A stretch of 64,000 nucleotides of DNA from Haplodiscus bocki (taxonomy: Eukaryota). Both the position numbers and the translations under genes were made by a program. Shown in pieces: positions 27,701 to 30,700 of this stretch. Positions within the stretch are counted from its first letter, which is position 1; every line of letters begins with the position of its first letter. The notes under the pieces were generated by a model. The model was not told the DNA's origin, ran no database searches, and saw only the letters and a program-made list of their open reading frames with translations. Location: the NCBI GenBank assembly GCA_965655095.1, contig OZ296648.1, positions 118,420,001-118,484,000 on the forward strand, given 5' to 3'.

Positions 27701-30700
27701 GTCCTAATCCATCAGAGATGGACATCAAAGTGTTTATTCCCGCGCCGACACCTTTGTTTACAGTTATACAAAAATATTCCGTAAATGGAAAAAGGAAAAA
27801 TAATTCCTTAATTGTAGAAATGGATTAAAAAGAAAATATGGAAATGCATGACTTCAAATAATATAAATATTCATCACCCTTACTTCACTTCATCCGTAAC
27901 AACAGTTCATTAGTTCTTATTCTTCTGAACTGAGAAGAAACTAGTAGCACTACTAGTTCTTTCCTCATTCGTACGAGTAGCACTAGTAGATTCCGGAACG
28001 ATTCCGGAACCATTCCGTAATCACTAGTAGTGGTCGTATTCTTTGCTCAATGAGGAGTGATTCCGGAATCATTCCGGAATCACTACAGCGCGGCAGCGTA
28101 ATAGTAGTAGTGACGTCAGCAGACTAGTAGCGACGGAACACGTACGGAACAAATATTCACTCCTAGAGTCAATACACTTGAAATCAGTCAATCTACGTAC
28201 AGCATCAATTTAATTCTAATTTCAAAATTAAACTGCACTTTTAGTAGTCAATCATTGTTCGATTTAATTGCAAAAAGGTGGATTTGTATTTAATAATTAA
28301 GTAATTATATTAATATAAATATAGCACCTATTCAAATGATAATACTCTGTGAATACTCGTTTGTTCCGTAGTGTTTCCGTCCTAGTCCGGATCAGTTTGC
28401 TTCCGTATAAATACCTACTCATATTTATGTGCGTTGTTAGGGATACGTATATATACGTATCCGTATATCTGCACAACAGTTGAAATACATAAAAGAGTTA
28501 TAGTTAAAGTCTAATAAATGTTTGAGTTTCTTCTAAGCATTGGGTGGCTTTTCTTTCAATAGGGGTTGGCCGCATGCCTCGCAGGTGTGCTGCGACACTC
28601 CCCCCTTTTTGGGAAAAGACATCCTTATGCTGAGTTTCCTTTTCTGTCTTCGTGGAGGCGGCAGAAAGGAGGAAGGGCTCGAGGCGACAGACACATTTCT
28701 TGGCTCGTTAGAGTCGAAGGTGTCGCTCGACGAAATATCCCAGTAGACTCTTCTTGGCTCGTTTTCAGACGAATAGAAGGTGTTGTCGTCTGTTGTGGTG
28801 TGGGTTGTTTCCCATCCTTCAATAGTGCTGACATTCATCGGCGCCGTTGAAATCGGAGATGGAATGGACGGTTCCGGTGACTGGGGGCTGAATGCATCAT
28901 TCCCTTGGATTACAGCCATCGTTGCCAGTACATTGAAGGGGTTTGGTGGTCAATTCAGGTCGTTAAGACTGGGCGGCACGATCGGCTGCTGATTGCCGAA
29001 CCCATAGGGTATTGTGGGGTCAATCGAATCAGAGTCCAGCGTTACAATTCGCGGTTCCGGAGAGGGGACGGTGGAGATTGAGATGACCTCTCGTTCCATA
29101 ACTCCAGATATCTCCGTCGAATTGAAAATCGCAGGGGAATTGTTTCGGATTGGGCTTCCTTCTGCTGATGTTTGCTCCACATAGAAGACATCAGATTCTG
29201 TAGAAGAGGAATTCAAAAAAATATTCATCGCAATAGTGTTTCTAGAGCTTTGAAAATGAAGAAGCGTGAGATAAGATCTGAGCTACTGATTTCAGTGAAG
29301 CGACTCTAAGAAGTGGTGATATAAATAAGAAGTCAGTCAGCATGCGTTGCCAGGCGGGAGATACTTTGAAGTTCCCGCGGTTTCACTCTAACTATTTAAG
29401 TCGAGTATTTGGCGGTATAGCAGGAATTGATAGTTTGTAAACAAATCAAGGAATGAATTTTGAGGATGAGGAAAATTTGAGTTTGATTCCTCAATGTATC
29501 CTTGAAAATGTGATGATGAGTGATGATGATGACGTCAATGCTGGCAGACAAATCGGTCATGATGAAAATTAAAATAATAATGAATTTCATGAATGAAATT
29601 AAAAATCCACCATATAACAGCTCATTAGCCACGTACTTCCATCAATTTGTGGAATATGTCAGAAGACAGTGTGATCTTTCTCGCGGAAGTGAGTTCGTCC
29701 CAAGTGGACACCAAGTCAGCTGTTCAAGCTACTTTTTCCCCTTCCCCTTTGAATGTCCCCGAAGAGAATGTTGCTGGAGAGAGAGGAAAGGAGAGTCCTG
29801 TGGGAGGTCTGGAAAGACTGGTTGAAGTACGCGGCGTATGCGAGACTGAGATGGGCACTGAAGCTAATGCAGAGGACGAGGATGAGGACGTCGATGTTGT
29901 TGGTGGCGTGGACGAAGGTGGACTGTCTGGATTTGAATCTGAGGGATTCACGCTGTCAGAAATCCTTCGTCGCAAGAGACTGGGGAAGAATGTGTCCGAG
30001 CGTGTCATTGACACTGCTCACCTTCCCCAATGTGAGTTTTCAAATCTTCATCGATTACCATTAGCCTTTTCTCTTGAGAATTCCTTTGCTGGCCAGTCAT
30101 TGGATTCTATTTTGGGCTAGTTTTTCTGCGCGCGCTCTCGAGTATGAAGATGACTTCGTGAGGCTGTTGTGTTTTAGTGTACAATCGCTCAGGAGAACCA
30201 GTTGTTCATTGTGATGAGCCTGAACTGCCTCGGGCAGACATGTCTGGCTCCGAGTTTGAAGTTGGCGGGCCGACTTCAGAAGAAGAAGTCGAAAGGAAGA
30301 AGAGTCGGGTGAAACGCGCTCCAAGGAGTCCTCTCACGGCTGTTCCTGAGAGTTGGTAGCTCTATATCCTACATTGCAGGTTTTGTCATTTTAGTGGCTC
30401 TTTCCCTGTTTTATTTTAGGCGATGCCGAGACGATTGCAGGAATGTCCGGTACTGAGGAAGTGTCGACTGGCGTTGAGACTGATGGGCAGTTGAGAGGGC
30501 GTCACATAGTTCCTACCAGGAGCCTGGTACCGTTGGCTGGGGGGCCCAGCATGATGTCCCTGAGGTTGTCCACAGTCGAAGTCGAAGCAGGGAGCTTTTA
30601 GAGCGGGCATTTGATGACGGTAATTCTGGTGCTCTAAACGAGGAATTTACTGGTATTTTTCCAGGTTGGCTACAAGTTTTTACCATTTTTATATGGTTTG

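Follow-up and report, generated by a model that had tools for sequence, protein, structure and literature searches.

ORF-A, a selected accessory gene with candidate SUMO-interacting motifs that reads into the 3' LTR of a Ty3/Gypsy retrotransposon of Haplodiscus bocki

ORF-A between pol and the 3' LTR

The stretch of Haplodiscus bocki DNA analysed here (64,000 nucleotides; contig OZ296648.1 of assembly GCA_965655095.1, positions 118,420,001 to 118,484,000 of the forward strand; the window, at its full length) contains, on its minus strand, a long terminal repeat (LTR) retrotransposon of a large and very abundant Ty3/Gypsy clade, in which an open reading frame (ORF) of 231 codons, ORF-A, lies between pol and the 3' LTR and stands head to head with a second accessory gene on the opposite strand. 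A preliminary description made from the letters of the window had proposed ORF-A as a disordered accessory protein with several SUMO-interacting motifs (SIMs) in a position like that of nef. The ORF at 28533..29228 was borne out and its strand, unstated there, is minus, with the ATG at 29228-29226 and the stop codon at 28535-28533; its translation crosses the polypurine tract (PPT) and the last 21 codons lie inside the 3' LTR, so that the nef-like read-through holds as well.

28533..29228, minus strand: ORF-A, 231 codons, disordered accessory protein, interrupted in this copy (frame map, copy alignment)
28950..28952, minus strand: premature stop at codon 93 of ORF-A, private to this copy
28598..28610, minus strand: PPT, 13 nt, abutting the 3' LTR and translated within ORF-A
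26777..28597, minus strand: 3' LTR (self-comparison)

Selection was analysed in four sets of natural copies, whose labels are internal to this analysis: set A comprises the best 30 of 40 listed DNA matches to the ORF-A of the window, set B 30 of the 40 DNA matches listed for the homologous region in a diverged element that lies immediately left of the window (the frame of which shows 55% protein identity to ORF-A and crosses the PPT likewise), and sets C and D the top 15 of 157 and the top 15 of 189 matches to two distant proteins; as C and D were chosen by protein, are mixed and are more decayed, their counts are rougher. Between A and B, synonymous sites are saturated (proportion of differing synonymous sites, pS, 0.76) and the corresponding value for non-synonymous sites (pN) is 0.27, with divergence at codon positions 1, 2 and 3 of 0.32, 0.23 and 0.61. 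Within the families the ratio of non-synonymous to synonymous rates (dN/dS) of ORF-A is 0.31 (A) and 0.40 (B), values that include neutral decay after insertion, and four other frames gave 0.9-2.0. Family-wide stops are found in none of the 222 codon columns of the ORF-A frame, compared to 3-13 per family in every other frame, and the frame from ATG to normal stop is open in 10 of the 30 set-A copies. With one A copy as the reference, ORF-A has a pN/pS of 0.31-0.46 and integrase one of 0.21-0.28. Purifying selection, seen on this frame only, puts ORF-A beyond chance, and a chance ORF was rejected: judged from these copies, ORF-A is almost certainly a real gene.

It could be argued that ORF-A is a by-product, held open by DNA signals or by an antisense gene without selection on any protein, given that the PPT and the LTR start are DNA signals themselves and that the mirror antisense frame also has a low dN/dS (0.27-0.49). 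This mirror frame, however, carries family-wide stops in 5 columns in A and 3 in B; the synonymous sites are saturated, and even the LTR-encoded codons 211-221 differ mainly at silent sites (pS 0.70, pN 0.14), which makes the by-product explanation extremely improbable. The reading of ORF-A as an antisense shadow was rejected. Constraint stops after the CxxC encoded in the LTR and the last ten codons are unconstrained (pN/pS 1.31). At the other end of the gene, an in-frame ATG lies 27-36 nt before SIM-like motif 1 in 19 of the 32 B, C and D copies that could be anchored (60 examined).

The premature stop at codon 93 limits the product of the window copy to at most 92 residues; it occurs in 1 of the 60 A and B copies and is thus not fixed. 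The purine tract is read as KKGG in the window copy, as the preliminary description noted, but KKGG as a motif was rejected, since no more than 5 of 26 copies in family A and 9 of 27 in family B have K[KR]GG. In several copies (L004, L016 and L020) purine-tract length changes of one base, probably homopolymer slippage, shift the C-terminus of ORF-A, and in one copy (L134:90-1840) the ORF-A frame is present twice in tandem.

Together, Ser, Pro and Thr account for 35% of ORF-A, and an AlphaFold2 model based on 40 aligned sequences has no confident fold (mean predicted local distance difference test score, pLDDT, 50.7; predicted template modelling score 0.11), in line with the disorder proposed for this real and conserved accessory ORF. 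A transmembrane segment was not found in ORF-A (highest 19-residue hydropathy mean 0.57-0.75 in four proteins), and identity as an env-like ORF3 was rejected on the signal peptide and transmembrane features that it would require. Pfam gave no match for ORF-A, PDB sequence searches gave nothing credible (one COE3 match, E 2.5, was dismissed) and the Atlas search was uninformative (best 0.78). The ORF-A profile retrieved 508 clusters at 50% identity, 150 of which were viewed and ten looked up, none of them named; first-look genome searches gave 3052 DNA and 8409 protein candidates, which are not copy numbers. No title or abstract was found on this ORF, on a SIM-bearing retrotransposon accessory protein or on a hAT-like antisense gene in an LTR element, the search leaving outside its scope most subscription papers and supplements, where acoel repeat libraries may hold such elements. 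ORF-A represents a new family of accessory genes, although the element itself is of a known kind; the family is selected codon by codon even over the PPT and the first part of the LTR, offers a few testable motifs and has thousands of candidate genome matches.

Conserved motifs, the lysine desert and candidate partners

All motifs quoted for ORF-A in the preliminary description (ESDVFYVE, EVISIS, IVTLDSDS, PPPRRQKRK and HTCEACGQ) are present. In the analysis of their conservation, general consensus patterns were used for the SIM, RVxW, RxL, nuclear export signal (NES) and SPxR motifs, and chance levels were taken from 5000 composition shuffles.

29178..29198, minus strand: SIM-like motif 1, residues 11-17, conserved; core in A 26/29, B 21/29, C 11/15, D 2/15; pN/pS 0.28
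29073..29090, minus strand: SIM-like motif 2, residues 47-52, without conservation across families; kept in A 27/30, B 2/30, C 3/15, D 7/15; pN/pS 0.57
29025..29048, minus strand: SIM-like motif 3, residues 61-68, hydrophobic core conserved; core in A 29/30, B 26/30, C 11/15, D 10/15; pN/pS 0.26
28908..29021, minus strand: most conserved stretch, residues 70-107, Pro/Asn/Leu-rich, including NES-like spacing; pN/pS 0.21
28740..28754, minus strand: RVxW, PP1-docking-like; A 29/30, B 19/30, C 10/15, D 0/15
28626..28652, minus strand: basic cluster, like a nuclear localisation signal, overlapping an RxL-like motif; basic triad in A 28/30, B 25/30, C 11/15, D 8/15
28572..28589, minus strand: HxCxxC, encoded where the 3' LTR begins and selected as coding sequence; present in A 25/30, B 21/30, C 11/15, D 9/14
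28644..29228, minus strand: lysine desert, residues 1-195; no Lys in any of 195 codons (0.039 per codon expected; P=4e-4)

The proposal of a multi-SIM protein with motifs shared among copies survives in part: motifs 1 and 3 and the basic cluster PPPRRQKRK persist across families, whilst motif 2 does not, so that conservation of all three SIM-like motifs across families was not found. The flanking N-terminal linkers have a pN/pS of 0.56-0.65 (A against B), a pattern that points to selection on two of the SIM-like strands and not on the third, with the best-kept stretch lying elsewhere. A hydrophobic four-residue core with an acidic or Ser flank in disordered sequence is present; motif 3 fits the strict SIM pattern and motif 1 fits only with Tyr allowed, and motif 3 is accompanied by three acidic or Ser residues in 27/30 A, 9/30 B, 3/15 C and 3/15 D copies. 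In the shuffles, two matches to the SIM core pattern of the preliminary description have P=0.002, the strict SIM-a pattern P=0.055, a looser ELM-type pattern P=0.18, the basic cluster P=0.03 and CxxC P=0.01.

The lysine desert extends to all four sets: over residues 10-192 Lys is the commonest residue in no column, and in the 101 columns where the sets differ the set-commonest residue is never Lys (Arg in 6, Asn in 14, Glu in 15). Elsewhere in the element Lys accounts for 4-9% of the Gag and Pol frames and for 2.4-2.9% of two other acidic stretches. Lysine deserts are reported to be prevalent in disordered proteins of the ubiquitin system, including the SUMO-targeted ligase Slx5 (PMC10169902), and ORF-A likewise has its SIM-like motifs within such a desert, which by this analogy is the main new support for a link to the SUMO/ubiquitin system. 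The layout of ORF-A, with N-terminal SIM-like motifs in a disordered lysine desert, then a basic stretch and C-terminal Cys residues, resembles that of the SUMO-targeted ligases Slx5 and RNF4. A RING ligase as such was rejected, as ORF-A has only two conserved Cys and one His and no Pfam match; with HxCxxC in place of a RING, it would correspond at most to the decoy or adaptor half of these ligases.

The lysine desert is likewise compatible with a ubiquitin-ligase adaptor. ORF-A would in this case recruit a ubiquitin ligase in order to degrade a host restriction factor, as Vpx, Vif and ICP0 do in viruses, with SUMO possibly serving as the substrate tag. Typical as the desert is of ligases and their adaptors (PMC10169902), and in spite of the conserved hydrophobic core and the partial zinc site, we consider this recruiter unlikely: there is no RING, the protein ends after a single CxxC followed by the unconstrained codons, and no clear BC box was seen by eye.

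Other short motifs are conserved to a similar degree as the SIM-like strands, namely RxLx-hydrophobic (A 29/30, B 23/30, C 9/15, D 7/15), SPx[RK] at residues 25-28 (A 27/30, B 17/30, C 8/15, D 6/15), the NES-type leucine spacing at residues 84-93 (A 28/30, B 21/30, C 12/15, D 6/15) and RVxW; SUMO is therefore one of several candidate partners. ORF-A could thus be a cell-cycle or phosphorylation adaptor that engages cyclin-CDK through the RxL-like motif and PP1 through RVxW, with the activity of the element tied to cycling stem cells and the SIM-like strands binding a partner other than SUMO. RxLx-hydrophobic, SPx[RK] and RVxW are kept in most A and B copies, and TCCCGC hexamers, E2F-like by consensus, occur upstream of ORF-A in all four sets and also in the LTR. 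RVxW is absent from all 15 set-D copies, however, [ST]P pairs are unenriched in four of five proteins, and one RxL per protein is expected by chance (P ~0.25). Viral RxL peptides are reported among the strongest cyclin binders, although the consensus in the same report demands F or L after RxL, a place taken by I, M or V in the examples from A and B, and fewer than 15% of strict RxL matches bound (PMC12356897); on balance we regard the cyclin/PP1 adaptor as improbable.

The NES-type spacing lies inside the most constrained stretch and, together with the conserved basic cluster and the zinc site, would suit a shuttle, Rev-like or particle-associated, by which unspliced RNA of the element or its integration complex passes the nuclear envelope, roles of the kind that reviews propose for extra ORFs (PMC7264820). 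The NES pattern nevertheless appears in 43% of the shuffles, the basic cluster is short for an RNA-binding arm, and a shuttle leaves motifs 1 and 3 and the lysine desert unaccounted for; it appears quite unlikely.

The antisense partner and a possible role in relief of silencing

29656..30954, plus strand: 5' remnant of an accessory gene in antisense orientation, apparently spliced; the window copy lacks its zinc finger and RNase-H-like exons
29229..29655, no strand: spacer of 427 bp from ORF-A to the antisense gene, with TCCCGC hexamers at 29354 and 29373
30954..30965, no strand: internal deletion junction, where full-length copies have ~3.1 kb more (copy comparison)

The first antisense ATG, at 29656, points away from ORF-A. 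Fuller versions of the gene are found in L037:3226-7700 and L119-L135, and the ~3.1-kb region of full copies encodes, in antisense frames, a CxxC...H...H finger as well as additional exons. Seven family-A neighbourhoods were fetched, of which four are collinear with the window copy and have ~3.1 kb extra at 30954-30965, a fifth has the ~3.1 kb in a rearranged element and two are without the region; full copies have ~6 kb between pol and LTR. Among 20 copies of sets B, C and D, 18 have the antisense gene beside ORF-A, and in 15 integrase comes next. Three antisense exons are under purifying selection, with a pN/pS of 0.35-0.56, compared to 1.0-1.14 for an off-frame control segment of the gene (10 stops). 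The frame of exon 1 is open, with 12 stops among 3536 cells and the ATG kept in 29 of 30, and as its pN/pS of 0.76 is no different from that of other frames or the spacer, its coding status is weak; the spacer varies less than this adjoining exon.

In 4 of 5 copies that could be anchored (11 tried) a GT donor comes right after one and the same coding position, and the antisense gene is apparently spliced, with several introns. The predicted introns were unmatched by the 15 joints listed (with 1553 further) on L037:300-9000, a natural copy; these joints come from four runs that have DNA-like loose ends at the LTR edge, and they have no bearing on expression or splicing. Derivation of the antisense product from hAT/ZBED is weakly indicated, as a lead only, by Atlas matches of 0.79-0.85, 9 of the 10 best family-bearing ones sharing one family or clan. 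A low-confidence model of the antisense exon (pLDDT 50.6) has RNase-H-like topology and places Hermes at rank 24 (E 0.02), and fold searches returned generic RNase-H-like folds (best Z 7.7, no E <0.001); Pfam and PDB sequence searches gave no match for the antisense exons, and a search for longer antisense proteins gave 41, none of them named. The catalytic acidic residues seem by eye to be absent.

The TCCCGC hexamers cluster next to ORF-A: the 350 nt upstream of it contain 54 (A), 42 (B), 20 (C) and 13 (D), compared to 1, 3, 1 and 0 in the next 350 nt. The spacer is a probable bidirectional promoter, an alternative being a splice or trans-splice acceptor upstream of ORF-A; in the acoel Symsagittifera roscoffensis 30% of genes are reported to be trans-spliced (PMC9911081). 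Silent divergence between L037 and L119-L135 is 0.40-0.62 in integrase and ~0.7-0.8 in ORF-A and the antisense exons of the same pairs, a contrast that may reflect exchange of the accessory cassette between pol lineages. All 15 TTCCGGAA palindromes of the window fall within the element, in the LTRs and just after integrase (27991-28072, 31222-31291, 31464, 33038 and 38834-38915), and are candidate sites for the antisense zinc finger.

The host genome encodes SUMO, 86% identical to a protein of Convolutriloba macropyga and 83% to one of S. roscoffensis, by which the host is probably an acoel, and a zf-MIZ (PIAS-type) domain. In the fly, piRNA-guided transposon silencing is reported to require SUMO and Su(var)2-10 (10.1101/533091), and SUMO-dependent repression through KAP1/SETDB1 has been reviewed (PMC8909597). 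Starting from what is directly established (the gene, its selection, the LTR read-through, the conserved motifs, the lysine desert and the head-to-head partner), we infer the rest. ORF-A is probably a nuclear adaptor working through short motifs; for the binding of SUMO itself the motifs suggest about even chances, and anti-silencing or activation through SUMO, though possible, is doubtful. The explanation that we tentatively favour combines these parts: ORF-A may be a nuclear, disordered SUMO-binding adaptor or decoy on SUMO-marked chromatin at the promoter of the element. Both accessory genes would be transcribed from the spacer between them and the basic cluster would carry ORF-A to the nucleus, where motifs 1 and 3 would dock on SUMO and the lysine desert would shield ORF-A from modification and destruction beside SUMO and ubiquitin ligases. 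Residues 70-107 and HxCxxC would engage another partner; this may be the antisense zinc-finger protein, with sequence specificity as its contribution. In sum, the element would be relieved of silencing or trans-activated.

Several observations weigh against this explanation, in addition to the similar conservation of the RxL-like, RVxW, SPxR and NES-like motifs. SIM patterns are short and singly near chance (P 0.04-0.18), motif 2 is lost outside family A, motif 1 has aromatic residues where the consensus has V, I or L and keeps its core in only 2 of 15 decayed family-D copies, and the full acidic tail of motif 3 is present in 9 of 30 B copies. The tightest constraint, on residues 70-107 and 211-221, is not explained by SUMO binding, Ser/Pro/Thr-rich sequence is often poor in Lys for other reasons, no relative in Pfam, PDB or Atlas points to a function, and SUMO-dependent silencing in this host is an extrapolation from fly and mammals. 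A complex prediction for SUMO (host residues 12-93) and ORF-A residues 5-75 scored 0.00 in two runs without alignments and is uninformative, the fold of the partner being uncertain.

The regions between pol and 3' LTR of other elements offer several precedents. Additional sense and antisense ORFs are known there in plants (PMC7264820, PMC11963269) and in bdelloid rotifers (PMC5408684); the sense ORFs described, among them the bdelloid ORF3 types, are env-like, transmembrane, esterase or exonuclease ones. ORF-A shares with bdelloid ORF3 and plant sense ORFs its orientation, its place and its retention in most copies, but has no transmembrane segment or Pfam match and continues through the PPT into the LTR. 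The plant elements Retand, Grande and RIRE2 (PMC11963269, PMC7264820) are similar in their long pol-to-LTR region and in a conserved antisense gene with a probable promoter of its own and a transposase-related, probably DNA-binding product; the present element differs in its animal host and in an antisense gene that is apparently multi-intron, hAT/ZBED-like rather than TRP28, and head to head with a sense ORF entering the LTR. The VANC proteins of Arabidopsis VANDAL transposons are element-encoded anti-silencing proteins (PMC5735166, PMC10398659), as is proposed for ORF-A, whereas VANDALs are plant DNA transposons whose proteins are sequence-specific DNA binders with reported activity, and ORF-A has no homology to them.

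Further comparison is offered by the 3' accessory genes of retroviruses. Lentiviral nef, HTLV-1 tax with antisense hbz, and MMTV sag belong to this class, and likeness to them lies in coding that overlaps the PPT and U3, in a disordered, motif-rich regulator and, for HTLV, in a spliced antisense partner. Differences are that no sequence similarity was found and no env was seen, and that Nef is membrane-anchored whilst ORF-A looks nuclear; as regards Nef, Pfam and PDB sequence searches gave no match and the ORF-A model has no confident fold.

To our knowledge, almost none of the extra ORFs of LTR retrotransposons other than env has an assigned mechanism. A SUMO-binding ORF-A that relieved silencing would be a rare case of counter-defence at the SUMO step by an animal retrotransposon, and would bear on the large LTR share of an acoel genome; even without a SUMO role, its conserved head-to-head pairing with an antisense gene that has introns makes for an unusual layout. 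A 'complex' acoel retrotransposon with a regulatory cassette of two genes, in which a captured, intron-bearing, hAT/ZBED-derived zinc-finger protein recognises repeats of the element and the SUMO-binding, lysine-desert ORF-A decoys or strips SUMO-dependent silencing, is an unlikely though far-reaching extension: it would amount to an anti-silencing system encoded by an animal retrotransposon, convergent with HTLV tax/hbz and plant VANC, and would give one reason for LTR elements filling about half of acoel genomes. LTR elements are reported to make up approximately half of the S. roscoffensis genome (PMC9911081).

Element anatomy and other features of the window

37619..39440, minus strand: 5' LTR (self-comparison)
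31511..38043, minus strand: gag-pol in Ty3/Gypsy order (zinc knuckle, protease (PR), reverse transcriptase (RT), RNase H (RH), integrase (IN); frame map and Pfam)
37607..37618, minus strand: primer binding site, which corresponds to the 3' end of host tRNA-Leu(CAG) (host tRNA comparison)

The element is a Ty3/Gypsy LTR retrotransposon, as is apparent from two direct repeats of 1822 bp that are 97.2% identical in self-comparison of the window (39440-37619 and 28597-26777), LTR ends of TG...CA, a flanking 5-bp target duplication, the presence of both primer binding site and PPT, and Pfam matches on the minus strand in PR-RT-RH-IN order; stops and frameshifts break gag-pol in the window copy. The gag start codon at 38043 falls ~420 nt inside the 5' LTR, and the N-terminal coding region of gag thus also covers an LTR end (38043-37619; equivalent 27200-26777), so that both LTR ends are protein-coding; a neighbouring diverged family has a similar N-terminal frame overlapping its own LTR. 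A long tandem array of tRNA-Leu-like 3' ends with a period of ~424 bp lies at G000:C1:161072333-161144759, with 737 pattern matches genome-wide.

At the left edge, another element of this clade, diverged from the first, is present with its 5' end (window positions 1-1500, together with L050 and L031); it has ~70-73% DNA identity in pol, and an ORF-A and an antisense gene of its own. The inverted-repeat elements at 42966-43955 and 50437-51700, both with subterminal repeats of 26 bp, are probably DNA transposons of a non-autonomous kind, and satellite-like tandem repeats of 30-31, 42, ~65 and 112 bp occupy 24400-25850 and 59260-60240.

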